From a virus (lineage: Duplodnaviria > Heunggongvirae > Uroviricota > Caudoviricetes), in IMG/VR virus record IMGVR_UViG_2609459845_000023, positions 1-21,924 of that record: a stretch of 21,924 nt of DNA. One strand, 5' to 3'. How positions within the stretch are numbered: the first letter of the stretch is position 1; each line of letters starts with the position of its first letter. Made by a program: the position numbers and the translations under genes. This document shows positions 5,545 through 21,924 of this stretch, piece by piece. The notes beneath the pieces are model-generated. The model was not told the origin of the DNA. It saw only the letters and a program-made list of their open reading frames with translations, and made no database searches.

Positions 5545-5760
5545 TCACCGTTCCTTAAAGACGCCGTTTAACATGCCGATCGCCAGGCTTAAATGAGTCG
5601 GTGTGAATCCCATCAGCGTTACCGTTTCGCGGTGCTTCTTCAGTACGCTACGGCAAATGTCATCGACGTTTTTATCCGGAAACTGCTGTCTGGCTTTTTT
5701 GATTTCAGAATTAGCCTGACGGGCAATACTGCGAAGGGCGTTTTCTTGCTGAGGTGTCAT
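5545..5760 (-). CDS. hypothetical protein (71 aa from MTPQQENALRS; alternative upstream start at 5826 gives 93 aa)
   Basis: track ORF 5545..5826; the internal ATG at 5760 forms an ATGA overlap with the stop of a coupled 27-codon ORF; start uncertain. Confidence 0.5.
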   Translation of the reverse strand: MTPQQENALRSIARQANSEIKKARQQFPDKNVDDICRSVLKKHRETVTLMGFTPTHLSLAIGMLNGVFKER

Positions 5761-5840
5761 TGAACAAGTCCCATGTCGGCAAGCATAAGCACACAGAATA
5801 TGAAGCCCGCTGCCAGAAAAATGCATTCAGTGGTTGTCAT
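5757..5840 (-). CDS. putative 27-aa hydrophobic micro-protein (MTTTECIFLAAGFIFCVLMLADMGLVQ)
   Basis: hand-translated; ATGA overlaps at both ends (with the orf63-like stop and with the MTPQQ start); single hydrophobic stretch; alternative reading is the N-terminal extension of the 93-aa ORF. Confidence 0.25.
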   Translation of the reverse strand: MTTTECIFLAAGFIFCVLMLADMGLVQ

Positions 5841-6028
5841 ACCTGGTCTCTCTCATCTGCTTCTGCTTTCGCCACCATCATTTCCAGCTTTTGTGAAAGG
5901 GATGCGGTTAACGTATGAAATTCTTCGTCTGTTTCTACCGGTATTGGCACAAACCTGACTCCAATTTGAGCGAGGCTATGTGCCATCTCAATGCTCGTTC
6001 TTAACTCAACAGGAGATGCTTTGTGCAT
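5837..6028 (-). CDS. small early-left protein, lambda orf63-like (63 aa)
   Basis: track ORF; SD GGGGAG 6 nt upstream; size and position (between exo and xis) match lambda orf63; sequence identity to lambda not confirmed from memory. Confidence 0.5.
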   Translation of the reverse strand: MHKASPVELRTSIEMAHSLAQIGVRFVPIPVETDEEFHTLTASLSQKLEMMVAKAEADERDQV

Positions 6029-6183
6029 ACAGCTCCCCGTTTATTATTTATCTCCTCAGCCAGCCGCTGTGCTTTCAGGGGATTTCGGGTAACAGAAAGG
6101 CCGGGAAATACCCAGCCTCGCTTTGTAACGGAGTAGACGAAAGTGATCGCGCCTACCCGGATATTATCGTGAGGATGCGTCAT
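6001..6183 (-). CDS. small early-left protein, lambda orf60a-like (60 aa from second Met)
   Basis: track ORF 6001..6189; ATG at 6183 overlaps the exo stop (ATGA), giving 60 aa as in lambda orf60a. Confidence 0.45.
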
Positions 6184-6860
6184 CGCCATTGCTCCCCAAA
6201 TACAAAACCAATTTCAGCCAGTGCCTCGTCCATTTTTTCGATGAACTCCGGCACCATCTCGTCAAAACTCGCCATGTAATTTTCATCCCGCTCAACCACG
6301 ACATAATGCAGGCCTTCACGCTTCATTCGTGGGTCATAGTTGGCAAAGTACCAGGCATCTTTTCGCGTCACCCACATGCTGTACTGCACCTGGGCCATGT
6401 AAGCCGACTTTATGGCCTCGAAACCACCGAGCCGGAACTTCATGAAATCCCGGGAGGTAAACGGGCATTTCAGCTCAAGGCCGTTGCCGTCACTGCATAA
6501 ACCATCGGGAGAGCAGGCGGTGCGCATACTTTCGTCGCGATAGATGATCGGGGATTCAGTAACATTCACGCCGGAAGTAAACTCAAACAGGGCTCTGGCG
6601 TCATTCTCGTACTTTTTTCCCCAGGCCAGCGCCTTAGCGTTAACTTCCGGAGCCACACCGGTACAAATCTCAGCCAGCAGGGTGTGAAAGTAGGACATTT
6701 TCATGTCAGGCCACTTTTTACCGGAGCGGGGTTTTGCTATCACATTGTGAACTTCTGAAGCCGTGATGACGCCGAGTCGTAATTTGTTCCACGCATCATC
6801 TCCCTGTTCGACAGCTCTCACGTCGATCCCGGTACGCTGCAGGATAATGTCCGGTGTCAT
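6180..6860 (-). CDS. exo: lambda exonuclease (Red-alpha)
   Basis: 226-aa [67 protein letters not shown]..., recognised as lambda Exo. Confidence 0.97.
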
Positions 6861-7642
6861 GCAGCCACCTTCTGCTCAGAGGCTTTCTGTTTCAGGAATC
6901 CAAGAGCTTTCACTGCTTCGGCCTGTGTCAGTTCTGACGATGCGCGAATGTCGCGGCGAAATATCTGGGAACAGAGCGGCAATAAGTCGTCATCCCATGT
7001 TTTATCCAGGGCAATCAGCAGAGTGTTAATCTCCTGCATGGTTTCATCGTTAACCGGAGTGATGTCGCGTTCCGGCTGACGTTCTGCAGTGTATGCGGTA
7101 TTTTCGACAATGCGCTCGGCTTCATCCTTGTCATAGATACCAGCAAATCCGAAGGCCAGACGGGCACACTGAATCATGGCTTTATGACGCAACATCCGTT
7201 TGGGATGCGACTGCCACGGCCCCGTGATTTCTCTGCCTTCGCGGGTTTTGAATGGTTCGCGGCGGCATTCATCCATCCACTCGGTAACGCAGATCGGATG
7301 ATTACGGTCCTTGCGGTAAATCCGGCATGTGCAGGATTCATTGTCCTGCTCAAAGTCCATGCCATCAAACTGCTGGTTTTCATTGATGATACGGGACCAG
7401 CCATCAACGCCCACCACCGGAACGATGCCGTTCTGCTTATCAGGGAAGGCGTAAATTTCTTTCGTCCACGGATTAAGGCCGTACTGGTTGGCGACGATCA
7501 ACAATGCGATGAACTGCGCATCGCTGGCATCACCTTTAAATGCCGTCTGGCGAAGAGTGGTGATCAGTTCCTGTGGGTCGACAGAATCCATGCCGACACG
7601 TTCAGCCAGCTTCCCTGCCAGCGTTGCGAGTGCTGTACTCAT
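6857..7642 (-). CDS. bet: lambda Bet single-strand annealing protein (Red-beta)
   Basis: 261-aa [69 protein letters not shown]..., recognised as lambda Bet. Confidence 0.97.
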
Positions 7643-7647
7643 CCGTT

Positions 7648-8064
7648 TTATACCTCTGAATCAATATCAACCTGATGGTGAGCAATGGTTTCAACCATGT
7701 ACCGGATGTGTTCTGCCATGCGCTCCTGAAACTCAACATCGTCATCAAACGCACGGGTAATGGCTTTTTTGCTGGCCCCGTGGCGTTGCAAATGATCGAT
7801 GCATAGCGATTCAAACAGGTGCTGGGGCAGGCCTTTTTCCATGTCGTCTGCCAGTTCTGCCTCTTTCTCTTCACGGGCGATCTGCTGGTAGTGACGCGCC
7901 CAGCTCTGAGCCTCAAGACGATCCTGAATGTAATAAGCGTTCATGGCTGAACTCCTGAAATAGCTGTGAAAATATCGTCCGCGAAATGCCGGGCTGATTA
8001 GGAAAACAGGGAAGGGGGGTAGTGAATGCTTTTGCTTGATCTCAGTTTCAGTATTAATATCCAT
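7648..8064 (-). CDS. gam: lambda Gam (RecBCD inhibitor)
   Basis: 138-aa [77 protein letters not shown]..., recognised as lambda Gam. Confidence 0.95.
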
Positions 8065-8162
8065 TTTTTATAAGCGTCGACGGCCTCACGAAACATCTTT
8101 TCATCGCCAATAAAAGTGGCGATAGTGAATTTAGTCTGGATAGCCATAAGTGTTTGATCCAT
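7998..8162 (-). CDS. kil: host-killing / cell-division inhibitor Kil
   Basis: internal start of track ORF 7998..8288 at [39 protein letters not shown]...; start overlaps the cIII 3' end by 32 nt as in lambda; exact C-terminus and length versus lambda uncertain. Confidence 0.8.
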
Positions 8163-8295
8163 TTTTTGGGACTCCTGGCTGATTAAGTATGTCGATAAGG
8201 CGTTTCCATCCGTCACGTAATTTACGGGTGATTCGTTCAAGTAAAGATTCGGAAGGGCAGCCAGCAACAGGCCACCCTGCAATGGCATATTGCAT
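8131..8295 (-). CDS. cIII: lambda CIII (FtsH inhibitor, stabilises CII)
   Basis: hand-translated 54-aa [57 protein letters not shown]; SD TAAGGAG upstream; below the track length cutoff. Confidence 0.9.
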   Translation of the reverse strand: MQYAIAGWPVAGCPSESLLERITRKLRDGWKRLIDILNQPGVPKNGSNTYGYPD

Positions 8296-8367
8296 GGTGT
8301 GCTCCTTATTTATACATAACGAAAAACGCCTCGAGTGAAGCGTTATTGGTATGCGGTAACGCCGCGC

Positions 8368-8736
8368 TCAGGCGGCTTTGATAGTCATATCATCTGGATC
8401 AAATATTCCTGATGTATCGATATCGGTAATTCTTATTCCTTCGCTACCATCCATTGGAGGCCATCCTTCCTGACCATTTCCATCATTCCAGTCGAACTCA
8501 CACACAACACCATATGCATTTAAGTCGCTTGAAATTGCTATAAGCAGAGCATGTTGCGCCAGCATGATTAATACAGCATTTAATACAGAGCCGTGTTTAT
8601 TGAGTCGGTATTCAGAGTCTGACCAGAAATTATTAATCTGGTGAAGTTTTTCCTCTGTCATTACGTCATGGTCGATTTCAATTTCTATTGATGCTTTCCA
8701 GTCGTAATCAATGATGTATTTTTTGATGTTTGACAT
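8368..8736 (-). CDS. ea10: lambda Ea10 (early single-strand-binding-like protein)
   Basis: 122-aa ORF MSNIKKYIIDYDWKASIEIEIDHDVMTEEKLHQINNFWSDSEYRLNKHGS...; same length and same 73-nt spacing from cIII as in lambda. Confidence 0.85.
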   Translation of the reverse strand: MSNIKKYIIDYDWKASIEIEIDHDVMTEEKLHQINNFWSDSEYRLNKHGSVLNAVLIMLAQHALLIAISSDLNAYGVVCEFDWNDGNGQEGWPPMDGSEGIRITDIDTSGIFDPDDMTIKAA

Positions 8737-8754
8737 CTGTTCATATCCTCACAG

Positions 8755-8782
8755 ATAAAAAATCGCCCTCACACTGGAGGGC
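8755..8782 (-). terminator. intrinsic terminator (tL2-region) upstream of ea10
   Basis: minus-strand hairpin GCCCTC-CAGTGT-GAGGGC followed by GATTTTTTAT. Confidence 0.45.
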
Positions 8783-8844
8783 AAAGAAGATTTCCAATAA
8801 TCAGAACAAGTCGACTCCTGTTTAGTTACGAGCGACATTGCTCC

Positions 8845-8872
8845 GTGTATTCACTCGTTGGAATGAATACAC
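8845..8872. repeat. 9-bp inverted repeat GTGTATTCA / TGAATACAC with 10-nt spacer
   Basis: read directly; lies between two terminator hairpins in the gap between the ral-slot gene and ea10. Confidence 0.5.
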
Positions 8873-8905
8873 AGTGCAGTGTTTATTCTGTTGTTTGCGT
8901 GAAAA

Positions 8906-8927
8906 TGAAACCCGCCTGAGCGGGTTA
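8906..8927 (-). terminator. intrinsic terminator overlapping the stop of the ral-slot gene
   Basis: minus-strand hairpin AACCCGC-TCAG-GCGGGTT followed by TCATTTTC. Confidence 0.5.
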
Positions 8928-9653
8928 TGACCACTTTTTGTTTGGATTTCGTTGGTGAGCGTGGTTTACAGGATTATTTGATATACCCCATAACTCTGAC
9001 TCGCTTATCTCTACACGAGAGAAAGACCTGCTTTCTTTCAGTTCTTTTATAAACCTAGAACCTACGATGACATCTATTGTCCCAGAAAGTTCTTGTAAAA
9101 GATCTTTGTTTTTTCTGAGGAAGAAAACATCTTCTTTATATTTAATTTTTACATAGAATTTATTCTGTATTTTTAATATATCAAAGCATGGCAGATATCT
9201 ATATCCCTCATGCTTTCGCCACTGCTTAACAATTATAACATCTCTTTCATTTACTGCATTAATCAGCCCAAGACCAAGTATAGGTATGAATATTCTATTG
9301 TCTGCCGAAAGCGTACAATTATTACCACCAGGCAAATATGTATAAATCATGTCGGAATTTTTATTCGCATCAACGAATGCACGTAAGAATCGTACATATT
9401 TTTGCCATCCGTTTATACCAAATTTACCATATAAGTATTCTTTATTTGTTAGAAGAAAACTATTTGTATCAGGAGCCTTATCTACAGACCTGTCGATAAG
9501 ATCTCCAACTACGTTTACAAAGTCAAAGACAGAGTTTAATAAGAACAATTGTCTTTCAGTCGGGCGAATTTCAATTATGTAGCCTGGATGAAGACGATAT
9601 TGCATCTGCTTACGAAGTATGCTGAACGCTTGGGTCCGGGCATCTGAAAGCAA
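8925..9653 (-). CDS. hypothetical AT-rich protein occupying the lambda ral/sieB slot (242 aa from TTG at 9653; 226 aa from first ATG at 9605)
   Basis: track ORF; body 8930..9540 is strongly AT-rich by eye while the 5' ~100 nt is GC-normal; no family recognised; does not match lambda Ral. Confidence 0.65.
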   Translation of the reverse strand: MLSDARTQAFSILRKQMQYRLHPGYIIEIRPTERQLFLLNSVFDFVNVVGDLIDRSVDKAPDTNSFLLTNKEYLYGKFGINGWQKYVRFLRAFVDANKNSDMIYTYLPGGNNCTLSADNRIFIPILGLGLINAVNERDVIIVKQWRKHEGYRYLPCFDILKIQNKFYVKIKYKEDVFFLRKNKDLLQELSGTIDVIVGSRFIKELKESRSFSRVEISESELWGISNNPVNHAHQRNPNKKWS

Positions 9654-9803
9654 CTTCCTGTCGCCATCGCCGTGAGCATTGTTTCTAATAAAACTGATAT
9701 AATTTGCTAATTTTTCAGCCTCTTTTTTGTGTTTTTTTTCGCTCTGATGCTGAGTCTATTGGTTTTGGTATGGACTTGTAATCAATTTTCTTCATTACGT
9801 ACC

Positions 9804-10127
9804 TCATGCCAATGGAATGGATTTCCCTTTAACCTTTTGTCTTCCTTGACAAGTTATACCGAACTCACTTGGCTTGCTATACCAAACTCGAAGATTCTTG
9901 CGCTCAATACGTTGCAGGTTGCTTTCAATCTGTTCGTGGTATTCAGCCAGCACCGTAAGGTCTATCGGATTCAGTGCGCTTTCTACTCGTGATTTCGGTT
10001 TGCGATTCAGCGAGAGAATAGGGCGGTTAACTGGTTTTGCGCTTACCCCAACCAACAGGGGATTTGCTGCTTTCCATTGAGCCTGTTTCTCTGCGCGACG
10101 TTCGCGGCGGCGTGTTTGTGCATCCAT
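9804..10127 (-). CDS. N: lambda N transcription antiterminator
   Basis: internal start of track ORF at MDAQTRRRERRAEKQAQWKAANPLLVGVSAKPVNRPILSLNRKPKSRVESALNPIDLTVLAEYH... (107 aa), recognised as lambda N. Confidence 0.95.
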   Translation of the reverse strand: MDAQTRRRERRAEKQAQWKAANPLLVGVSAKPVNRPILSLNRKPKSRVESALNPIDLTVLAEYHEQIESNLQRIERKNLRVWYSKPSEFGITCQGRQKVKGKSIPLA

Positions 10128-10285
10128 CTGGATTCTCTTGTCAGTTAGCTTTGGTGGTGTGTGTGAGTCGTAGTCCTGAACGAAAACACCCCACGATTGG
10201 CTCATTTGCAGCTAATCCGGATTCGCACTTCCGGCCAATGCTTCGTTTCGTATCACACACCCCAAAGCCTTCTGCTTTGAATGCT

Positions 10286-10317
10286 GCCCTTCTTCAGGGC
10301 TTAATTTTTAAGAGCAT
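10286..10317 (-). promoter_or_regulatory. nutL: nutL (boxB GCCCTGAAGAAGGGC; boxA-like TGCTCTTAA)
   Basis: minus-strand read GATGCTCTTAAAAATTAAGCCCTGAAGAAGGGCAGCA; boxB identical to lambda nutL, boxA differs at its first base from my recollection of lambda (CGCTCTTA). Confidence 0.85.
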
Positions 10318-10354
10318 CACCTTCAATGGTGGTCAGTGCGTCCTGCTGATGGTT

Positions 10355-10430
10355 TAAAATTACAAAAAAGATTGTATGTTGTAAACAAGAAATATTGTAA
10401 GAAAGGGGCATGAAAAACAAACTCCATTGT
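10355..10430 (-). promoter_or_regulatory. 434-type OL operators (three ACAA-N6-TTGT sites) with pL
   Basis: ACAAAAAAGATTGT (10362..10375), ACAAGAAATATTGT (10385..10398), ACAAACTCCATTGT (10417..10430); leftward promoter-like hexamers TTGTTT...TGTAAT overlap them. Confidence 0.75.
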
Positions 10431-10480
10431 TTTTAAACGGAAAATAGTTTGTTTTTTGGTTATCGAGATTGAGGTGGGGA

Positions 10481-11836
<1,356 letters not shown>

Positions 11837-11844
11837 GACATTCC

Positions 11845-11876
11845 CGCTCTTACACATCCCAGCCCTGAAAAAGGGC
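11845..11876 (+). promoter_or_regulatory. nutR: nutR (boxA CGCTCTTAC, boxB GCCCTGAAAAAGGGC)
   Basis: read directly: CGCTCTTACACATCCCAGCCCTGAAAAAGGGC, matching lambda nutR. Confidence 0.9.
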
Positions 11877-11894
11877 ATCAAATTAAACCACACC

Positions 11895-11930
11895 TATGGT
11901 GTATGCATTTATTTGCATACATTCAATCAA
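11895..11930 (+). terminator. tR1 region (hairpin GTATGCA-TTTATT-TGCATAC)
   Basis: sequence ATGGTGTATGCATTTATTTGCATACATTCAATCAATTG recognised as the lambda tR1 region between nutR and cII. Confidence 0.6.
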
Positions 11931-11955
11931 TTGTTATCTAAGGAAATACTTACAT

Positions 11956-12249
11956 ATGGTTCGTGCAAACAAACGCAACGAGGCTCTACGAATCGAGAGT
12001 GCGTTGCTTAACAAAATCGCAATGCTTGGAACTGAGAAGACAGCGGAAGCTGTGGGCGTTGATAAGTCGCAGATCAGCAGGTGGAAGAGGGACTGGATTC
12101 CAAAGTTCTCAATGCTGCTTGCTGTTCTTGAATGGGGGGTCGTTGACGACGACATGGCTCGATTGGCGCGACAAGTTGCTGCGATTCTCACCAATAAAAA
12201 ACGCCCGGCGGCAACCGAGCGTTCTGAACAAATCCAGATGGAGTTCTGA
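11956..12249 (+). CDS. cII: lambda CII transcriptional activator
   Basis: internal start of track ORF at MVRANKRNEALRIESALLNKIAMLGTEKTAEAVGVDKSQISRWKRDWIPKFSMLLAVLEWGVVDDDMARLARQVAAILTNKKRPAATERSEQIQMEF (97 aa). Confidence 0.95.
   Translation: MVRANKRNEALRIESALLNKIAMLGTEKTAEAVGVDKSQISRWKRDWIPKFSMLLAVLEWGVVDDDMARLARQVAAILTNKKRPAATERSEQIQMEF
11965..11978 (-). promoter_or_regulatory. CII-binding repeat TTGC-N6-TTGC of pRE
   Basis: minus-strand read TTGCGTTTGTTTGC inside the 5' end of cII, as in lambda pRE. Confidence 0.7.
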
Positions 12250-12271
12250 GGTCATTACTGGATCTATCAAC
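12195..12271 (-). ncRNA. oop: oop antisense RNA (77 nt) with its intrinsic terminator
   Basis: minus-strand read GTTGATAGATCCAGTAATGACCTCAGAACTCCATCTGGATTTGTTCAGAACGCTCGGTTGCCGCCGGGCGTTTTTTATT matches lambda oop; antisense to the cII 3' end. Confidence 0.8.
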
Positions 12272-12281
12272 AGGAGTCATT

Positions 12282-13181
12282 ATGACAAATACAGCAAAAA
12301 TACTCAACTTCGGCAGAGGTAACTTTGCCGGACAGGAGCGTAATGTGGCAGATCTCGATGATGGTTACGCCAGACTATCAAATATGCTGCTTGAGGCTTA
12401 TTCGGGCGCAGATCTGACCAAGCGACAGTTTAAAGTGCTGCTTGCCATTCTGCGTAAAACCTATGGGTGGAATAAACCAATGGACAGAATCACCGATTCT
12501 CAACTTAGCGAGATTACAAAGTTACCCGTCAAACGGTGCAATGAAGCCAAGTTAGAACTCGTCAGAATGAATATTATCAAGCAGCAAGGCGGCATGTTTG
12601 GACCAAATAAAAACATCTCAGAATGGTGCATCCCTCAAAACGAGGGAAAATCCCCTAAAACGAGGGATAAAACATCCCTCAAATTGGGGGATTGCTATCC
12701 CTCAAAACAGGGGGACACAAAAGACACTATTACAAAAGAAAAAAGAAAAGATTATTCGTCAGAGAATTCTGGCGAATCCTCTGACCAGCCAGAAAACGAC
12801 CTTTCTGTGGTGAAACCGGATGCTGCAATTCAGAGCGGCAGCAAGTGGGGGACAGCAGAAGACCTGACCGCCGCAGAGTGGATGTTTGACATGGTGAAGA
12901 CTATCGCACCATCAGCCAGAAAACCGAATTTTGCTGGGTGGGCTAACGATATCCGCCTGATGCGTGAACGTGACGGACGTAACCACCGTGACATGTGCGT
13001 GCTGTTCCGCTGGGCATGCCAGGACAACTTCTGGTCCGGTAACGTGCTGAGCCCGGCCAAACTCCGCGATAAGTGGACCCAACTCGAAATCAACCGTAAC
13101 AAGCAACAGGCAGGCATGACAGCCAGCAAACCAAAACTCGACCTGACAAACACAGACTGGATTTACGGGGTGGATCTATGA
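12282..13181 (+). CDS. O: lambda O replication initiator
   Basis: 299-aa ORF MTNTAKILNFGRGNFAGQERNVADLDDGYARLSNMLLEAYSGADLTKRQFKVLLAILRKTYGWNKPMDRITDSQLSEITKLPVKRCNEAKLELVRMNIIKQQGGMF... Confidence 0.97.
   Translation: MTNTAKILNFGRGNFAGQERNVADLDDGYARLSNMLLEAYSGADLTKRQFKVLLAILRKTYGWNKPMDRITDSQLSEITKLPVKRCNEAKLELVRMNIIKQQGGMFGPNKNISEWCIPQNEGKSPKTRDKTSLKLGDCYPSKQGDTKDTITKEKRKDYSSENSGESSDQPENDLSVVKPDAAIQSGSKWGTAEDLTAAEWMFDMVKTIAPSARKPNFAGWANDIRLMRERDGRNHRDMCVLFRWACQDNFWSGNVLSPAKLRDKWTQLEINRNKQQAGMTASKPKLDLTNTDWIYGVDL
12629..12760 (+). repeat. ori: ori-lambda: four iterons (ATCCCTCAAAACGAGGGA-like) plus adjacent AT-rich region
   Basis: TCCCTCAAAACGAGGGA / TCCCCTAAAACGAGGGA / TCCCTCAAATTGGGGGA / TCCCTCAAAACAGGGGGA followed by ACAAAAGACACTATTACAAAAGAAAAAAGAAAAGATTATT, inside O. 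Confidence 0.9.
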
Positions 13182-13879
13182 AAAACATCGCCGCACAGAT
13201 GGTTAACTTTGACCGTGAGCAGATGCGTCGGATCGCCAACAACATGCCGGAACAGTACGACGAAAAGCCGCAGGTACAGCAGGTAGCGCAGATCATCAAC
13301 GGTGTGTTCAGCCAGTTACTGGCAACTTTCCCGGCGAGCCTGGCTAACCGTGACCAGAACGAAGTGAACGAAATCCGTCGCCAGTGGGTTCTGGCTTTTC
13401 GGGAAAACGGGATCACCACGATGGAACAGGTTAACGCAGGAATGCGCGTAGCCCGTCGGCAGAATCGACCATTTCTGCCATCACCCGGGCAGTTTGTTGC
13501 ATGGTGCCGGGAAGAAGCATCCGTTACCGCCGGACTGCCAAACGTCAGCGAGCTGGTTGATATGGTTTACGAGTATTGCCGGAAGCGAGGCCTGTATCCG
13601 GATGCGGAGTCTTATCCGTGGAAATCAAACGCGCACTACTGGCTGGTTACCAACCTGTATCAGAACATGCGGGCCAATGCGCTTACTGATGCGGAATTAC
13701 GCCGTAAGGCCGCAGATGAGCTTGTCCATATGACTGCGAGAATTAACCGTGGTGAGGCGATCCCTGAACCAGTAAAACAACTTCCTGTCATGGGCGGTAG
13801 ACCTCTAAATCGTGCACAGGCTCTGGCGAAGATCGCAGAAATCAAAGCTAAGTTCGGACTGAAAGGAGCAAGTGTATGA
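13178..13879 (+). CDS. P: lambda P (DnaB helicase loader)
   Basis: 233-aa ORF MKNIAAQMVNFDREQMRRIANNMPEQYDEKPQVQQVAQIINGVFSQLLATFPASLANRDQNEVNEIRRQWVLAF... Confidence 0.97.
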   Translation: MKNIAAQMVNFDREQMRRIANNMPEQYDEKPQVQQVAQIINGVFSQLLATFPASLANRDQNEVNEIRRQWVLAFRENGITTMEQVNAGMRVARRQNRPFLPSPGQFVAWCREEASVTAGLPNVSELVDMVYEYCRKRGLYPDAESYPWKSNAHYWLVTNLYQNMRANALTDAELRRKAADELVHMTARINRGEAIPEPVKQLPVMGGRPLNRAQALAKIAEIKAKFGLKGASV

Positions 13880-14166
13880 CGGGCAAAGAGGCAATTATTC
13901 ATTACCTGGGGACGCATAATAGCTTCTGTGCGCCGGACGTTGCCGCGCTAACAGGCGCAACAGTAACCAGCATAAATCAGGCCGCGGCTAAAATGGCACG
14001 GGCAGGTCTTCTGGTTATCGAAGGTAAGGTCTGGCGAACGGTGTATTACCGATTTGCTACCAGGGAAGAACGGGAAGGAAAGATGAGCACGAACCTGATT
14101 TTTAAGGAGTGTCGCCAGAGTGCCGCGATGAAACGGGTATTGGCAGTATATGGAGTTAAAAGATGA
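13876..14166 (+). CDS. ren: lambda Ren
   Basis: 96-aa ORF MTGKEAIIHYLGTHNSFCAPDVAALTGATVTSINQAAAKMARAGLLVIEGKVWRTVYYRFATREEREGK... Confidence 0.9.
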   Translation: MTGKEAIIHYLGTHNSFCAPDVAALTGATVTSINQAAAKMARAGLLVIEGKVWRTVYYRFATREEREGKMSTNLIFKECRQSAAMKRVLAVYGVKR

Positions 14167-14190
14167 CCATCTACATCACTGAGCTAATAA

Positions 14191-14223
14191 CAGGCCTGCT
14201 GGTAATCGCAGGCCTTTTTATTT
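14191..14223 (+). terminator. tR2 intrinsic terminator between ren and ninB
   Basis: hairpin AGGCCTGC-TGGTAATC-GCAGGCCT followed by TTTTTATTT. Confidence 0.8.
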
Positions 14224-14239
14224 GGGGGAGAGGGAAGTC

Positions 14240-14680
14240 ATGAAAAAACTAACCTTTGAAATTCGATCTCCAGCACATCAGCAAAACGCTATTCACGCGG
14301 TACAGCAAATTCTTCCAGACCCAACCAAACCAATCGTAGTAACCATTCAGGAACGCAACCGCAGCTTAGACCAGAATCGAAAGCTTTGGGCTTGCCTTGG
14401 TGACGTCTCTCGTCAGGTTGAATGGCATGGTCGCTGGCTGGATGCAGAAAGCTGGAAGTGTGTGTTTACCGCAGCATTAAAGCAGCAGGATGTTGTTCCT
14501 AACCTTGCCGGGAATGGCTTTGTGGTAATAGGCCAGTCAACCAGCAGGATGCGTGTAAACGAATTTGCGGAGCTATTAGAGCTTATACAGGCATTCGGTA
14601 CAGAGCGTGGCGTTAAGTGGTCAGACGAAGCGCGACTGGCTCTCGAATGGAAAGCGCGATGGGGAGATCGGGCTGCATGA
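14240..14680 (+). CDS. ninB: NinB (Orf recombination mediator, nin146)
   Basis: 146 aa from MKKLTFEIRSPAHQQNAIHAVQQILPDPTKPIVVTIQERNRSLDQNRKLWACLGDVSRQVEWHGRWLDAESWKCVFTAALKQQD..., recognised as lambda NinB. Confidence 0.93.
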   Translation: MKKLTFEIRSPAHQQNAIHAVQQILPDPTKPIVVTIQERNRSLDQNRKLWACLGDVSRQVEWHGRWLDAESWKCVFTAALKQQDVVPNLAGNGFVVIGQSTSRMRVNEFAELLELIQAFGTERGVKWSDEARLALEWKARWGDRAA

Positions 14681-15205
14681 CTATCAAATCAAATACGCCA
14701 GCACACGACAAGGACTGCTGGCAAACGCCGCTTTGGCTTTTTGATGCACTGGATATTGAGTTTGGATTCTGGCTGGATTCGGCAGCGAGCGACAAAAAAT
14801 GCTCTGTGCGCTCACTGGTTAACTGAGGCCGACGACGCGCTAAATTCTGAGTGGATAAGCCACGGTGCAATCTGGAATAACCCACCGTACAGCAATATCA
14901 GGCCGTGGGTGGAAAAAGCCGCTGAGCAGTGCATACAACAGCGACAGACGGTAGTTATGCTTGTGCCAGAGGATATGTCAGTCGGATGGTTCAGCAAGGC
15001 TCTGGAGAGTGTCGACGAAGTTCGCATTATCACTGATGGACGGATTAATTTTATCGAACCATCGACAGGGCTGGAGAAGAAGGGAAACAGCAAAGGCTCC
15101 ATGCTGCTGATTTGGCGACCGTTCATCAGTCCTCGACGGATGTTTACTACCGTATCCAAAGCGGCATTGATGGCGATCGGGCAGGGCGTCAGGAGGGCGG
15201 CATGA
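14677..15205 (+). pseudogene. phage Dam-family DNA N6-adenine methyltransferase, frameshifted in an A6 run (14794..14799)
   Basis: two track ORFs in different frames (14617..14826 and 14741..15205) join into one protein, MTIKSNTPAHDKDCWQTPLWLFDALDIEFGFWLDSAASD / KNALCAHWLTEADDALNSEWISHGAIWNNPPYSNI..., if one A is removed; NPPY motif present; start overlaps the ninB stop (ATGA). Confidence 0.75.
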
Positions 15206-15354
15206 GGCGACAGCGACGAAGTTTCACCGACATCATCTGCGAAAACTGCAAATACCTTCCAACGAAACGCTCCAGAAATAAACGCAAGCCAATCCCAAAA
15301 GAATCTGACGTAAAAATCTTCAATTACACAGCTCACCTGTGGGATATCCGGTAG
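15202..15354 (+). CDS. ninE: NinE (50 aa here; lambda NinE is 60 aa)
   Basis: [50 protein letters not shown]; SD AGGAGGG upstream; start overlaps the Dam stop; C-terminus shorter than lambda nin60. Confidence 0.85.
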
Positions 15355-15380
15355 CTAAGATATCGTGCGAGGAAATGACA

Positions 15381-15722
15381 ATGGATTATTCACAGTTAAG
15401 TGATTTTGAAATTAACAGAATGGTAGGAGACATAATTTTTAAAGGCCTTTGGGCAAGTAAACCGGAAACATCAGGGAATAACACCAACAAATGGTATTAC
15501 GGAAATGCTTATACAACTTTTGAGCCATTAAATCATTTGCCTGACTACTGCAATGATCCGAGCGCTTCATGGCCGATTATTGAGAAATACAGGATTTCTA
15601 TCTTAGACCAGTTAACTGAATGGTGTGTGGATGCAAAAGGCGTAAGCCCAATATTTGATACCAGACCTCTCCGCGCCGCCATGATTGTCTTTCTCCTGAT
15701 GCAGGAGGCCAATAATGCTTAG
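15381..15722 (+). CDS. hypothetical protein (113 aa from [15 protein letters not shown]) immediately upstream of the holin
   Basis: track ORF 15339..15722; likely start at ATG 15381 with GAGG 8 nt upstream; not Q-like (only 2 Cys, no zinc-finger motif). Confidence 0.5.
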
Positions 15723-15975
15723 CCCATCTCAATCCCTTCAATACCTGAAAGAAAGCGTCGAGCGGGTATTAACGTGCGCTATGGACAAAATCAGAGAATG
15801 GTTCAGTTACAGCTTCGGAGGACTGACTGCGATGGGTGGCATTCTCTCCCTGAATGACTGGGCTGTCATCATTGGTATTCTTTGTACTGTCGGCACATTT
15901 GGCATCAACTGGTACTACAAGCGCAAAGAGCGCGAGGACAGATTGAATGGCAATGTCACCGGCACTACGAAATAG
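15715..15975 (+). CDS. putative holin (86 aa)
   Basis: track ORF; hydrophobic core [34 protein letters not shown] followed by charged tail [12 protein letters not shown]; positioned directly upstream of the endolysin. Confidence 0.6.
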
Positions 15976-16450
15976 CGTAATAGCGGCGATAAGTGGCGGG
16001 GCTATTGCTATAGCATCTGTGTTAATCACTGGACCGAGTGGTAACGATGGTCTGGAAGGTGTCAGCTACATACCATACAAAGATATTGTTGGTGTATGGA
16101 CTGTATGCCACGGACACACCGGAAAAGACATCATGCTCGGTAAAACGTATACCGAAGCAGAATGCAAAGCCCTCCTGAATAAAGACCTTGCCACGGTCGC
16201 CAGACAAATTAACCCGTACATCAAAGTCGATATACCGGAAACAACGCGCGGCGCTCTTTACTCGTTCGTCTATAACGTGGGCACAGGCAATTTCAGAACA
16301 TCGACGCTTCTTCGCAAAATAAACCAGGGCGATATCAAGGGCGCATGTGATCAGCTACGGCGCTGGACATACGCTGGCGGTAAGCAATGGAAAGGGCTGA
16401 TGACCCGTCGTGAGATTGAGCGTGAAGTCTGTTTGTGGGGGCAACAATGA
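15947..16450 (+). CDS. SAR-endolysin (T4-lysozyme-like muramidase with N-terminal signal-anchor-release segment)
   Basis: track ORF; N-terminal weakly hydrophobic Gly/Ala-rich segment [20 protein letters not shown] then [19 protein letters not shown]...; resembles RrrD-type prophage lysozymes of E. coli. Confidence 0.88.
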
Positions 16451-16538
16451 GCATGATTTGCTTTTTCATGGCAGCGTTGCTCGCATTGAATGGCAACGAT
16501 GCGTGGCCGTGGTTTCTGGCCGTTGGGGTGTTGATGTC

Positions 16539-16997
16539 ATGAGTCGGTTAACCGCGATTATCTCCGCTCTGGTTATCTGCATCATCGTCTGCCTGTCGTG
16601 GGCGGTCAATCATTACCGTGATAACGCAATCGCCTACAAAGAGCAGCGCGATAACAAGGCCAGTGAACTGGAGAAGGCGAACGCCACCATCGCTGACATG
16701 CGGAAGCGTCAACGTGATGTAGCAGAACTCGATGCCAGATATACAAAGGAGCTTGCTGATGCTAACGCGACTATCGAAAGTCTCCGTGCTGATGTTTCTG
16801 CTGGTCGTAAGCGCCTGCAAGTCGCCGCCACCTGTGCAAAGTCAACGACCGGAGCCAGCAGCATGGGCGATGGAGAAAGCCCAAGACTTACAGCAGATGC
16901 TGAACTCAATTATTACCGTCTCCGAAGTGGAATCGACAAGATAACCGCGCAGGTTAACTACCTGCAGGAATACATCAGGACGCAATGCCTGAAATAA
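16539..16997 (+). CDS. Rz-like i-spanin (153 aa)
   Basis: internal start of track ORF 16410..16997 at [26 protein letters not shown] (N-terminal TM) followed by coiled-coil-like sequence; SD GGGGTG upstream. Confidence 0.8.
16759..16944 (+). CDS. Rz1-like o-spanin lipoprotein embedded in the +1 frame of Rz (61 aa)
   Basis: [20 protein letters not shown] lipoprotein signal (lipobox VSAC), then Pro-rich [12 protein letters not shown]; SD AAGGA 8 nt upstream; entirely within Rz. Confidence 0.7.
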
Positions 16998-17028
16998 TTT
17001 TTTTGCAAATCACAAAGTCAATTTAATG

Positions 17029-17083
17029 AGCCTCGCGATGCGGGGCTTTTTGCAATAAATGCGTACCGCAACGCATGTTTTTT
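17029..17083 (+). terminator. tandem intrinsic terminators ending the rightward operon
   Basis: hairpin AGCCTCGC-GAT-GCGGGGCT + TTTTT (about 17029..17051), then ATGCGT-ACCGCA-ACGCAT + GTTTTTT (17059..17083). Confidence 0.6.
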
Positions 17084-17198
17084 ACACCGAACCTGCCCCT
17101 TTGGAATGGGCCTTTGAGGATACCAGTTAGTGCTGGCGAGCCTCGGTGGGCTGGTTTCCTATGCGGCAAAGGTTCATTTCAAATGGTAGGTAAACGTT

Positions 17199-17720
17199 AT
17201 GAATATCGTGCCACTTAATTACAAAGGTGAAATTGTCAGTTTCAACACTGATGGTTGGATCAACGTCACAGGTGTTGCTGAGAGATTTGGAAAACGCATT
17301 GATAACTGGATGCGTTTGGCAGAAACGCTTGAATACGTTCGTGCTTTAGACGAAGCGTTGACCGGGAAAGAATCTCAAATTTTACATCCCTCACAATCGA
17401 GGTATGTAAAAACCAGCAAGGCACGAAAGGACAGGGGTGGTGGTACGTGGCTACATCCAAAACTTTCAGTTGCATTTGCCCGTTGGTGTGATGCTCGTTT
17501 TGCTGTGTGGTGCGACCTGCACATTGATAGTCTGCTTCGCGGTGAACTGACTGAGCAGCAGAAATATGAGCAAGCATGTCGCATTCGCGATGACCGGAAA
17601 TCAAAAGCCAGCAATGGGGCAAGAGAGATGGCTCGCTGGCGATGGGATAAGCCGGTTATTGAAGCAAATGTTGAGTACTGGCGCGAGCAACTGCAGTTGA
17701 CTCTCGATATCGCGTGCTGA
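17199..17720 (+). CDS. KilA-N domain protein (173 aa)
   Basis: track ORF; N-terminal pattern DGWINVTGVAERFGKRIDNWMRLAETLEYVRALDEAL fits the KilA-N / APSES-type DNA-binding signature; SD GGTAGG upstream. Confidence 0.65.
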   Translation: MNIVPLNYKGEIVSFNTDGWINVTGVAERFGKRIDNWMRLAETLEYVRALDEALTGKESQILHPSQSRYVKTSKARKDRGGGTWLHPKLSVAFARWCDARFAVWCDLHIDSLLRGELTEQQKYEQACRIRDDRKSKASNGAREMARWRWDKPVIEANVEYWREQLQLTLDIAC

Positions 17721-18177
17721 TGGCAAACGCAAAACTGCGTTATCGGAAAAATCAAAGCATTACGAGAACTGAGCAACGGCTATCCATTACAAAGCCCATC
17801 TACGGGTGGGCTTGATAATGAAACCGGAATTTATTCTTGGCAACCAGTTACGGCAGTACCACAAAACAACCCAAGCCAGTAAGTGGGGAAATAACACTGG
17901 CAGCCACTGAAAGATGAACCTCCTGCCTTATGGCAAAAAAGATTCTTTGTTGTGGCGGACTGATGGAAAGACATCGGTTATTGCAGAGGCCATTCAATGA
18001 GTGGTCTCGACAATGGCTTATACCCTGCACGGGATAACTTAACTGATATCCCTTTTAACGGATAAACGGAGCCAACAATGGCAGAGCTCACAGACAAACA
18101 AGAGCTGTTTGCCCATCCGGATGATGTGTATGTCGGAGAGTGTGTGATTTATACCGGCTACCGGGCAAGTTCCGGAT

Positions 18178-18513
18178 ATGTCATCCTTTACCTATACAAC
18201 AACCGGGTCTGGTGTGGTTATTCGCCTTCCTGGCAATATGATCATCCAGATGGATGTAGGTACAACGGACAGTAACGGATTTTATAATGTGAATATGGGT
18301 GTGGCGATGAGCTCATACCAGGTATTTGCAGTAGAAGGCCATGTCTCTGGATGGACAGCCTCCGGCGGTATCTATCAACTCTTAACCGTGTATGGTGCCG
18401 AAAAGGTTAACGCAGGGAGCTTTAATGTTCGTTCTGCAACCTGGAGTTCGTCCGACCACAACTTTACTGCGCAGCCAACAGTTTTTAACTGGATTGCTAT
18501 CGGGAGAGCGTAA
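18178..18513 (+). CDS. probable 3' remnant of a side tail-fibre gene (C-terminal domain, 111 aa)
   Basis: track ORF; stop overlaps the tfa start (TAATG) as in stf-tfa pairs; the frame is open from about 18148; overlapping ORF 18078..18275 in another frame suggests a 5' truncation or frameshift. Confidence 0.45.
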   Translation: MSSFTYTTTGSGVVIRLPGNMIIQMDVGTTDSNGFYNVNMGVAMSSYQVFAVEGHVSGWTASGGIYQLLTVYGAEKVNAGSFNVRSATWSSSDHNFTAQPTVFNWIAIGRA

Positions 18514-18977
18514 TGTCTGATTCAGATTTTTTATATAGTGCCAAAAGCAACGCTTTTGTTTTCAAGGAAAGCTCTCTGTTAAAGACGGACGAATACAGTG
18601 ATGCTGTGCCGGTTGATATGGGTGTTTTCGCCGAATTTTACCCAACAGTTAAAGACGGCATGCGAAGGGTTGCAGGGCCAGACGGCATGCCTGCGTGGGA
18701 AAAAATTCCCGAGCCAACTAAAGAAGAACTGTTCGCGCTTAAACTGGCACAGGCCGAGTCAAAGAGAGATGCGTTAATCTCTGCGGCTAACGCATATATA
18801 AGCAGCGAACACTGGCCTTCTAAGCTCATTCTGGAGATCATCACCGATGAAGAGAAGGCGACCTTTAAAGAGTGGCTTGCTCATATCGATGCCTTGAAGA
18901 AAATGAAGTTTAATGATGAAGCAGCGATATTAAGTGACAGCCTTGAATGGCCGCCACGTCCTGCTACCGCGTCGTAA
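18513..18977 (+). CDS. tfa: tail-fibre assembly protein (Tfa family)
   Basis: 154-aa ORF; C-terminal region (...EELFALKLAQAESKRDALISAANAYISSEHW...EEKATFKEWLAHIDAL...LEWPPRP) resembles the conserved Tfa C-terminal domain ending in an EWP..P motif. Confidence 0.75.
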   Translation: MSDSDFLYSAKSNAFVFKESSLLKTDEYSDAVPVDMGVFAEFYPTVKDGMRRVAGPDGMPAWEKIPEPTKEELFALKLAQAESKRDALISAANAYISSEHWPSKLILEIITDEEKATFKEWLAHIDALKKMKFNDEAAILSDSLEWPPRPATAS

Positions 18978-20025
18978 TCTCCTGGCGTTTCAGCGCCGAA
19001 CGGGCCAGACGGATAAACGGTTTTTCAATTATCCGGTTAGCTGCGAATGCCATCATCAGAGAAGCAACAAGCATGCAGGGGACAAGGACGCCCCAGTGCT
19101 TATACTCCCCAATCGGAATAAATTTCTGTACCATCTGCATTACCAGCCAATGACAGAGATAAATGCTATATGTCAGGTCGCCAAGAATTGATAATGCTTT
19201 TATCTCTCCCGCCTTTGATTTATCCAGCATCAAAACGCCCACAAAAAATATTGCAGCAAAAAAGAACATTCCTTCTATACCGCTGGTATGGTCTGAGAAT
19301 GTGAAGAAAAAATAGAAAAATAAAGCCGATGCGAATATTGCTATAGTAATAGCAGTTAAGTTAGGAAGAATTAATTTAAACCTTTCAAATATCATTCCAG
19401 ACATAATCCCAAACGCAAACTCATAAAACATCGTTGAGCCTGCCAGCCTGATTAGACCATAAAACGGCGAGTCAGCAGGAGGGATAGCGGTGACTGTGCT
19501 GTTAAACGACAACCCTCCATTAAACGCAACCTGTAGCACTGCCGGGATTGCAATCAGCAGCGCGATACACAATGAACCTCGATACCGGGTCGTTATTGCA
19601 GCGCACATACAGAAAATAGCGTAGAACGATATTTCATAAGTCAATGTCCACGCGGGCGGTAGCAGATTAAATCCAAACGCCGGAGCGGGTAGTGTGTAAT
19701 CGTTGTGCAGAACCAGAAAACCCCTGGATAATTGTGTGGCAGGCGCAGGTTGCAATAACAACGAAACCAGTAACACAACAAAAAATAGCGGGTATATTCT
19801 GGCGAATCGTTTAACAATAAATACCGTTGGTCTGCATTCCTCAGGATTTATTGTTGACCAATAAATAATAAATCCAGAGATAATGAAAAAAATATCAACG
19901 CCCACCATGCCATTTGCAAATAAATTAGCAAACCAGCGCGGAGTAAAAAAAGAAAAATGGTACAGCACCACAAGTAGCGCTGCTATTCCACGAAGATACT
20001 GGACGGAAAATATTTTATTGTTCAT
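18964..20025 (-). CDS. acyltransferase-3 family integral membrane protein (O-acetyltransferase-like)
   Basis: track ORF 18964..20037 (TTG); likely ATG start at 20025 (MNNKIFSVQYLRGIAALLVVLYHF...); multiple hydrophobic helices; AT-rich; converges on tfa with a 14-nt overlap. Confidence 0.8.
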   Translation of the reverse strand: MNNKIFSVQYLRGIAALLVVLYHFSFFTPRWFANLFANGMVGVDIFFIISGFIIYWSTINPEECRPTVFIVKRFARIYPLFFVVLLVSLLLQPAPATQLSRGFLVLHNDYTLPAPAFGFNLLPPAWTLTYEISFYAIFCMCAAITTRYRGSLCIALLIAIPAVLQVAFNGGLSFNSTVTAIPPADSPFYGLIRLAGSTMFYEFAFGIMSGMIFERFKLILPNLTAITIAIFASALFFYFFFTFSDHTSGIEGMFFFAAIFFVGVLMLDKSKAGEIKALSILGDLTYSIYLCHWLVMQMVQKFIPIGEYKHWGVLVPCMLVASLMMAFAANRIIEKPFIRLARSALKRQEITTR

Positions 20026-20059
20026 TATGTGGCCCAATTTTCATTGAGCCACAATTATA

Positions 20060-21346
20060 TCAGAAAACCCCCTCAACCCACAACTGGCCATCAAAGCACA
20101 CCATTCTAAACAGACGTGATGCGGCGTTCCCGCCAGCCGCCACTACCAAATCAGCATCAAATATCGCCATGCCATTAGCCGGGTGGTACAGGTCGCCGAC
20201 AGCCTGTTTAAGCGTCAGATCACCAGCTCCCGGCGTTGCGCTTCGGACCATCAGATAAAACGAACTCCCGTCCGGGTAAACAGTTGGCAGCGCATTGATT
20301 GTCACGTTACCGGATAACCCCTCGGTGAAATAACAATGTCCAGTTTCAGGCCACCAGATTAAATCAGTAGCGTTGATATTGCTCGTTCCCGCTACATCAA
20401 TGAGCTTGTGGATTTTCCCTGGCTGTAAATCCCCGGAGTTTGCACAGAACAGCGCCGACAGTTGCTGCAATGCGGTTTCACTATCGCGCCAGTTCAGCAC
20501 ATTTGTAATAGTCCCGCGCTTAATTCTGCCGTCAAACAAAACGGGGCGCTCTGGCGTGAACGTCACGAAGTCTTTCGTGTCTACAAAATAAGTCCATTTT
20601 TTTGTGTCGAAAAAATCCGCATAGATTCTGATCGTGCCGTCCGGCAAATAAACCAGCGCCGGGCCTTCCGCCGCCTGAGTAAACGGAATTACTGATAATT
20701 TCGTGAACTGTCCTGAGAAACAATTTGAACAATACACCTCAATTTTTTTGGTGATTTCATCTTTTATTGTCAGGTAATACGTCTGGAATATTCTGGAAAA
20801 AACAGAATCAATCATGTTTTTTGGTTCGATATTTACCGCAACCGGATCGTAAAACTCCAGTCTCTCAACATCAGAACAGACAGAATAGAATGTTTTAAAA
20901 CTTTTGACATTTACACCTTTACTGTCAGTCTGATCGTTGTAATAACGCAGGCTGACTATCAGGAACAGATTTTCGTCATCAACAAACCATTCAGGAGCCC
21001 ACACGTCAGTGGTCACCAGATCTGAACCCGGTAATCGTTTCCCACAGACTGGCGTATCGCCAAGCTTAATTCGTACCAGTTCCCACACGGTTAAATCACG
21101 TGAGCGCCAGCAATCGACGTCATAAACGTTTTCTGTATATCCTGATACGGCTATTAACCACCAACCGTTGTGATAAATAATTGATGGGTCTCTCCCTAAA
21201 ACTTCTCCAGTTCCACCAATAGCCCAAAGGAATTGAGCCTTTATTTTTTCGAATCGTTCTCCATCATAAGATAATGCCAGGTTTACTTTTGAGCTTTGGT
21301 CACTTTCAAAAAAAGAACCAACAAACAGCGCGGAATTATTTTTCAC
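20060..21346 (-). CDS. hypothetical protein (428 aa), upstream partner of the acyltransferase
   Basis: track ORF; only possible start is GTG at 21346 (in-frame TAA two codons upstream) with weak SD; no signal peptide; family not recognised. Confidence 0.65.
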   Translation of the reverse strand: MKNNSALFVGSFFESDQSSKVNLALSYDGERFEKIKAQFLWAIGGTGEVLGRDPSIIYHNGWWLIAVSGYTENVYDVDCWRSRDLTVWELVRIKLGDTPVCGKRLPGSDLVTTDVWAPEWFVDDENLFLIVSLRYYNDQTDSKGVNVKSFKTFYSVCSDVERLEFYDPVAVNIEPKNMIDSVFSRIFQTYYLTIKDEITKKIEVYCSNCFSGQFTKLSVIPFTQAAEGPALVYLPDGTIRIYADFFDTKKWTYFVDTKDFVTFTPERPVLFDGRIKRGTITNVLNWRDSETALQQLSALFCANSGDLQPGKIHKLIDVAGTSNINATDLIWWPETGHCYFTEGLSGNVTINALPTVYPDGSSFYLMVRSATPGAGDLTLKQAVGDLYHPANGMAIFDADLVVAAGGNAASRLFRMVCFDGQLWVEGVF

Positions 21347-21436
21347 GATGATTTACCGATTGGATATTTATATTTAAAGACAATTTAAATTTATAATAAA
21401 TGTCCCAAAATTGCTCACTATTTGGTTATGGGAAAT

Positions 21437-21480
21437 AACGATCAAAATCTTCAAATCGATCGGTTGCAACGATCAAAATC
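21437..21480. repeat. 13-bp direct repeat AACGATCAAAATC x2 (31-bp spacing) with three GATC sites
   Basis: read directly at 21437..21449 and 21468..21480; GATC at about 21440, 21458 and 21471; lies in the divergent intergenic region. Confidence 0.6.
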
Positions 21481-21490
21481 CATGCATTGG

Positions 21491-21510
21491 TACTGTATGT
21501 ACATACAGTG
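21491..21510 (+). promoter_or_regulatory. LexA operator (SOS box) upstream of the umuD-like gene
   Basis: TACTGTATGTACATACAGTG contains a perfect 16-bp palindrome CTGTATGTACATACAG fitting CTGT-N8-ACAG; 16 bp upstream of the start codon. Confidence 0.8.
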
Positions 21511-21525
21511 CCAATGAGGTGAGTT

Positions 21526-21924
21526 ATGGTTGCCATGTCACAGTTTCCCAGCCCTGCTGCTGATTACCACGAGGATGCGATCTCACTCGACAAGGAGTTG
21601 ATACGAAAACCAGCGGCGACATTCTTCATCCGTTACGCTGCTACATCATGGCGGGAAGGAATCAAGAGAGGTGCTCTGCTGGTCATGGACACATCGCTGA
21701 CTCCGGTAGACGGAAGCCTGGTGATTTGTCATCTGAATGACCAGATACGGCTGTTGCGTCTCAGGCTGCTGCCAAAGGTGCACCTGGAAGAACTGGACCA
21801 CGCTGATAAAAAGACATGGATAACTGACGACGATTGTGAGGAACGAGTCGTAGTGAAGGGGGTGGTGACGTACATCATCAATGACGCGCGGACTGGTGAG
21901 TTTGATGACTACCCGCTGAAGTGA
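21526..21924 (+). CDS. UmuD'-like protein (LexA/UmuD S24 family), 132 aa
   Basis: track ORF; FPSPAADY motif and overall alignment to the E. coli UmuD C-terminal domain; SD GAGGTGAG upstream; begins near the position of the UmuD Cys24-Gly25 cleavage site. Confidence 0.7.
   Translation: MVAMSQFPSPAADYHEDAISLDKELIRKPAATFFIRYAATSWREGIKRGALLVMDTSLTPVDGSLVICHLNDQIRLLRLRLLPKVHLEELDHADKKTWITDDDCEERVVVKGVVTYIINDARTGEFDDYPLK

Follow-up and report, generated by a model that had tools for sequence, protein, structure and literature searches.

The 21,924-nucleotide stretch of DNA analysed here (hereafter the window) is a lambdoid prophage that adjoins ybhC, at the lambda attachment site, and its early-right operon can be followed from the replication genes into a nin region (Table 1). 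Within this nin region, between ninB and ninE, lies a methyltransferase gene whose reading frame is broken by one additional A in a short A tract. The genes int, exo, bet, cI, O, P, ren and ninB are all full length, and only two indels over 3.9 kb separate the window from phage mEp332.

Table 1. Features of the early-right operon and of the split methyltransferase gene (positions in the window)
Feature	Position	Strand	Remarks
O	12282-13181		Early-right operon
P	13178-13879		Early-right operon
ren	13876-14166		Early-right operon
tR2-like terminator	14192-14215		Between ren and ninB
ninB, orf-family recombination mediator	14240-14680	+	PF05772 on the identical gene in L003/L007; annotated NinB in L001, L002 and L226
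5′ fragment of methyltransferase gene (ORF1)	14677-14826	+	40 native and 9 out-of-frame residues, then TAA (14824-14826)
A6 tract, +1 insertion site	14794-14799	+	Intact alleles read GAC AAA AAT (A5)
3′ part of methyltransferase gene, +1 frame (ORF2)	14798-15205	+	Native residues 41-175 plus TGA
NPPY catalytic motif (motif IV)	14879-14890	+	Codons AAC CCA CCG TAC; now apart from the N-terminal 40 residues
ninE, truncated	15202-15354	+	PF05322 on the same gene; stop from TGG>TAG at 15352-15354
ninX	15381-15722		Early-right operon, after ninE
Junction of 2,509-bp deletion	15780-15781	.	Relative to L006, L012, L103 and L104

No head or tail genes were found between the KilA-N gene (17199-17720) and a lone tail-fibre-assembly gene (18513-18977), nor elsewhere in the window, and no complete E. 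coli genome matches over 70 % of the window at any single place; the make-up of the prophage suggests that it is rearranged or chimeric, and defective. In E. coli NT1F25, this site is occupied by a close relative in which the methylase gene, ninE and Q are intact. The left flank of the window (1-1284) is ybhC, marking the lambda attachment site, and in the sister contigs that extend beyond the window (L003 and L007) the right flank is dacD-sbmC-yeeA, not the bio side of that site. The genes dacD-sbmC-yeeA presumably adjoin sbcB on the E. coli K-12 map.

Translation from the methylase start codon leaves the native frame after Lys40 and ends in a 49-aa product, MTIKSNTPAHDKDCWQTPLWLFDALDIEFGFWLDSAASDK followed by KCSVRSLVN and the stop codon, which has been deposited elsewhere as 'DNA N-6-adenine-methyltransferase family protein'. 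The +1 frame is open from 14741 to the TGA at 15203-15205; upstream of 14798, it encodes non-native residues. The original prediction held that a +1 insertion in the A run disrupts the gene, that removing one A restores a single ORF of roughly 175 aa with an NPPY motif, and that this ORF is translationally coupled to ninB upstream and ninE downstream, and these points were borne out, the coupling in the form of ATGA overlaps. The run is exactly A6 where intact alleles have A5; removal of one A gives a 175-aa protein identical to WP_000153270.1, with NPPY in place; and the ATGA overlaps of the ninB stop with the methylase ATG (14677-14680) and of the methylase stop with the ninE ATG (15202-15205) can be read in the sequence. 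Such overlaps are typical of nin regions, the genes of which are nonessential and tightly ATGA-coupled (PMC8022706).

The 529-nt stretch of the gene matches 1,566 of 5,426 complete E. coli genomes and 244 phage records at 95-99.8 % identity. The top matches are all 528 nt long, a difference of a single 1-nt gap, and in alignments with related intact genes this gap falls in the A tract, as originally predicted, with no mismatches over the rest of the gene relative to either E. coli WCHEC050613 (L001) or mEp332. A5 versus A6 is the sole difference between the window copy of the gene and the closest intact 528-nt alleles. The window contains 50 homopolymer runs of six or more nucleotides, 17 of them A6; an A6 tract is in itself not unusual, and the non-random part is the frame break within a conserved gene.

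The restored protein matches two phage Dam profiles over their full length, namely PF05869 (218 bits, 8e-65, positions 1-167 of 169, cut-off 28.1) and the NCBIfam equivalog TIGR01712 (phage N-6-adenine-methyltransferase; 264 bits, 3e-79, positions 1-165 of 165, cut-off 97.05), and it retains the (D/N)PPY motif IV as NPPY, in what is now the +1 frame. As encoded in the window, however, the profile is divided between two ORFs: positions 1-40 fall to ORF1 (55.7 bits, under the TIGR cut-off) and positions 37/38 to 167/165 to ORF2, so that no single uninterrupted ORF carries both the N-terminal conserved segment and the NPPY motif. Because the two ORFs match consecutive profile segments, the single frame break is located at the A tract.

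The label 'Dam-family' in the original prediction is right for the phage Dam family PF05869/TIGR01712, but it does not extend to the family of E. coli Dam. Membership of the D12 class (PF02086, E. coli Dam and T4 Dam) was considered and rejected, since the Pfam scan of the restored protein returned PF05869 only and no other Pfam family at E≤0.01. E. coli Dam and T4 Dam resemble the M.EcoVT2Dam type in their reported GATC target and m6A product, but belong to a different sequence family, and the restored protein of the window is, at 175 aa, much smaller. No relative was found in a PDB sequence search with the restored protein, and its single-sequence AlphaFold model has a mean pLDDT of 43.

The restored protein is identical at 174 of 175 residues to Dam of the Stx2 phage VT2-Sakai (BAA94133.1), the record of which notes similarity to M.T1 of phage T1 and Orf13 of HP1. 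In a methylome paper, the passage that cites Radlinska & Bujnicki 2001 gives GATC as the target of M.EcoVT2Dam (PMC6602927), and by its near-identity to M.EcoVT2Dam as cited there, the restored allele would be a GATC-specific m6A enzyme. In VT2-Sakai, as well as in 933W, HK97 (gp62), mEp213, mEp332 and SfI, the gene likewise lies between ninB and ninE, to both of which it is joined by the same ATGA overlaps, and its DNA is 98.5-99.8 % identical to the window copy; in all of these phages it is one 528-nt ORF with A5, whereas the window copy has A6 and is split. By its profile matches, the locus derives from the PF05869/TIGR01712 family (M.EcoVT2Dam type); with its frame broken, it is a pseudogene and not a functional member of that family.

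The A6 allele is common to a lineage of closely related prophages. In this lineage, the 49-aa product was found in four NCBI assemblies and an ENA metagenome scaffold, and the same A6 sequence was found on two IMG/VR contigs; the contigs that were fetched for the 49-aa product all have A6. Positions 5594-21924 of the window are 100 % identical to a contig of GCA_000704585.1, and only 1-3 SNPs beyond 6035 separate the window from contigs of GCA_000687025.1, GCA_000704665.1 and GCA_000704885.1. The sources given with the deposited proteins are E. coli 3-073-06_S3_C1 and 2-011-08_S3_C2. Counted across related prophages, the tract is A6 in every member of the lineage (the window, L003, L006-L010, L012, L103 and L104) and A5 in the intact copies.

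Assembly GCA_000704585.1, a draft, holds three contigs, each with the same ~16-kb prophage segment (JNRH01000066, JNRH01000072 and JNRH01000028, our L007, L008 and L009). These segments are 0-1 differences apart beyond 6035 and all have A6, while their flanks differ; the prophage could be present in several copies, the culture could have been mixed, or the segment could have been duplicated in assembly.

The genes that follow the methylase are decaying as well. The relevant ninE codon is TGG in L001, L002, L004, L011, L013 and L016 and TAG in all members of the window's lineage, shortening the product to 50 aa from the 58-60 aa of relatives; this is a second lineage-specific inactivating or truncating mutation, some 150 nt downstream of the methylase. 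Further downstream, the window has undergone a deletion of 2,509 bp that takes out the 3′ part of ninF, ybcO, rusA, ninH, Q and the late-promoter region, joining NinF codons 1-22 in frame to Met4 of a class II-type holin (PF16080) across a microhomology of 2 nt (TA). In this arrangement, the lysis genes now stand directly in the early-right operon without Q.

These lesions are nested. The metagenome scaffold (L012), the IMG/VR contigs L103 and L104, and L006 have A6 and lack the 2,509-bp deletion, while a C>T change at 15317 is confined to the window and L007-L009. The order of events would accordingly read A6 with ninE W51*, then the 2,509-bp deletion, then 15317 C>T, and no reversion of A6 was found among lineage members at any of these steps. 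Since A6 is common to the relatives without the deletion, it is inherited and predates the later decay. Alongside the ninE nonsense codon, the loss of Q and the lack of morphogenesis genes, the frameshift counts among the decay events of a prophage predicted to be unable to complete the lytic cycle.

Outside this lineage, the A6 allele is rare. A 60-nt tract-centred query cannot separate A5 from A6 plus one SNP (both 98.3 % identity) and was replaced by a 40-nt query seeded by A6 copies alone, which gave no match in the 5,426 complete E. coli genomes; with the 60-nt queries, no match identical to the window was found among ~1,400 E. coli places and 191 phage records. An exact-pattern scan of IMG/VR returned two contigs for the A6 30-mer, at least 120 for the A5 version and none for the A4 version, and the best 80 related IMG/VR loci are all single intact in-frame ORFs. 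The A6 pattern was found neither in GTDB species representatives nor in JGI metagenomes. In a set of ~15 billion predicted proteins, 12-20 contigs encode the 49-aa A6 product exactly, and a further 4 encode one of three near-variants of it; the A4 (-1) product was found on 6 contigs, whereas no contig has the A7 product. The exact sequence of the intact 175-aa protein is found on at least 1,000 contigs.

An 82-aa downstream product, which occurs on 492 contigs, was considered as a sign of widespread disruption and set aside, as most of these are contig-end partials and few are true internal disruptions (among L013-L016). Draft E. coli contigs by the hundreds end at nearly one point inside the methylase gene (e.g. 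L017-L022); this recurrent break presumably marks the edge of a repeat that several lambdoid prophages resident in one genome have in common.

Given this rarity, the extra A could be suspected of being a homopolymer miscall from sequencing or assembly, with the real genome having A5 and an intact gene. The change is indeed a single-base homopolymer indel, A6 is missing from every one of the complete E. coli genomes, and A6 is also present, on different haplotypes, in L005 and L014, two assemblies of one project that are full of other 1-nt insertions; in these two it is probably an artefact, and the site can thus be miscalled. However, A6 recurs across separate data, namely four or more isolate assemblies, two contigs of IMG/VR, a metagenome scaffold obtained independently from the same lineage, and two further data sets. 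It segregates together with SNPs specific to the lineage and is older than the 2,509-bp deletion, and no other frameshifted conserved genes were found in the window. Its presence across separate isolates and a metagenome, nested with later changes, makes a random sequencing error unlikely. The original prediction had left true pseudogenisation, sequencing error and reversible switching side by side; the sharing of A6 by independent assemblies favours the first of these.

The reversible slipped-strand switch, in which the tract would toggle at high frequency between A5 (ON) and A6 or A4 (OFF) and so modulate GATC methylation of the prophage or the host, fares worse still. It draws on the position of the mutation in a homopolymer and on the occurrence of both +1 (A6) and -1 (A4, 6 contigs) alleles in public data. 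In the phasevarion mod genes of Haemophilus, Neisseria, Helicobacter and Moraxella, the frame of a methyltransferase depends on the length of a simple repeat, as it does at the window tract. Those genes, however, have long tracts or multi-copy repeats (e.g. G13 or C9) with ON/OFF polymorphism among close isolates, and the cut-offs used to screen for phase-variable tracts are A9/T9 or more and G7/C7 or more (PMC4209511). The window tract, at 5-6 nt, lies under these cut-offs, and it shows no polymorphism inside the lineage and none across ~1,600 relatives. The absence of A6 from the ~1,400 E. coli and 191 phage copies, the IMG/VR counts of 2 A6 contigs versus at least 120 with A5 versus 0 with A4, and the retention of A6 by the whole lineage across later mutations, with no reversion, all speak against switching. 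Moreover, E. coli host Dam methylates GATC, so these sites are already methylated, and the gene belongs to the lytic early-right operon, which, to judge from lambdoid gene order, is presumably silent in the lysogen. The switch is therefore unsupported, and we regard it as highly improbable.

The original prediction had also pointed to a GATC-clustered regulatory region elsewhere in the prophage. There is no overall GATC excess in the window, with 66 sites observed against 86 ± 8.5 expected. Three GATC sites do lie within 35 bp of one another (21440, 21458 and 21471), and 3′ of them a LexA-box-like palindrome (TACTGTATGTACATACAGT, 21490-21508) closely precedes the UmuD-like (Peptidase_S24) ORF at 21526. 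Divergent from this region, two genes on the minus strand encode a weakly GH43-like protein (20060-21346) and an Acyl_transf_3 acyltransferase (18964-20037). The stretch from 21440 to 21508 is possibly the region that was meant.

If the frame break is genuine, it might nonetheless be bypassed. Programmed recoding, by +1 slippage of Lys-tRNA on A-AAA-AAT or by slippage of RNA polymerase, would restore the frame in part and let the A6 allele yield some full-length enzyme: if a P-site Lys-tRNA shifted by one nucleotide from the first AAA and paired anew with the +1-frame AAA, the next codon, AAT, would give exactly the native DKNALC. We consider this scarcely probable. Homologues do not share the split, the ancestral state and by far the commonest one being a single in-frame ORF, and inspection by eye revealed neither a stop or rare codon after the slip site nor a Shine-Dalgarno-like stimulator before it. 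An A6 run is also short for transcriptional slippage.

The allele is not confined to the window's lineage. L004 (GCA_038073755.1) and L011 (SRR23175538) carry A6 in other lambdoid mosaics (locus positions about 9486-10640) that differ in their replication and late modules, with a ninB-methylase block identical to window positions 14163-15316, A6 included, and with ninE intact in both. Both encode NinG, NinH, a phosphatase and a different Q; in one, the replication module is of the DnaB type. Here, A6 reflects either module exchange by recombination or a second insertion on a common ninB haplotype; the same haplotype occurs with A5 in L016. L004 carries the A6 allele although, with its terminase and portal genes, it has the appearance of a complete prophage, which indicates that the methylase is dispensable. 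Other lesions strike the same gene independently in other E. coli genomes: L013 (AP027626.1) has a 4-nt insertion at the equivalent of 14723, near codon 16 of the methylase, and L016 (AP027844.1) lacks two nucleotides of the NPPY Tyr codon (equivalent to 14889-14890). In L015, the methylase gene call is truncated, with no indel.

Several independent knock-outs of the same small gene, together with the A6 allele in three mosaic backgrounds that share an identical ninB-methylase block, might be taken as a sign that loss of the methylase was selected, for example because inactivation avoids over-methylation or a methylation-dependent host nuclease. This is very unlikely in our view, as disrupted copies are a very small minority next to the at least 1,000 contigs with the exact intact sequence, and the decay of neighbouring genes (ninE, and ninF to Q) fits a general relaxation of selection. 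Equally, there is only a very faint chance that the A5/A6 tract serves as a low-frequency reversible or translationally leaky control point, which would supply small amounts of GATC methylase at prophage induction, by +1 Lys-tRNA slippage on A-AAA-AAT, RNA polymerase slippage or rare reversion of A6 to A5; the dampened module would then be tolerated or favoured and for that reason persist and move between mosaics (the window lineage, L004 and L011).

The explanation that we favour, and consider very probable, is a genuine, vertically inherited +1 frameshift (A5 to A6) that inactivates a nin-region orphan methyltransferase allele of M.EcoVT2Dam, its loss being neutral. The extra A most probably arose by replication slippage. 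Translation of the A6 allele yields a 49-aa peptide with the N-terminal conserved segment only, leaving NPPY in the other frame, and since no ribosome-binding site can be recognised for the downstream frame itself, no active enzyme is predicted to be made. The loss would have become fixed in the lineage without selection on the gene; we infer neutrality from the dispensability of nin genes for lambdoid growth, the methylation of GATC already provided by host Dam, and the restriction of early-right transcription to the lytic phase.

If the switch were real, a phase-variable methylase would be unusual for an E. coli prophage, but the evidence points elsewhere. The pseudogene allele is already deposited and the parent phage methyltransferase is well known; beyond correct annotation, the significance of the finding is slight. 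The proper label for the locus is that of a frameshifted M.EcoVT2Dam-type phage methyltransferase pseudogene, instead of two hypothetical ORFs, and it should not count as an active methylase in methylome predictions. The pseudogene-bearing module turns up in several phage mosaics, and in the lineage of the window the nested lesions (A6 with the ninE nonsense mutation, the loss of Q and the later SNP) would make a small example of the stepwise decay of a lambdoid prophage.
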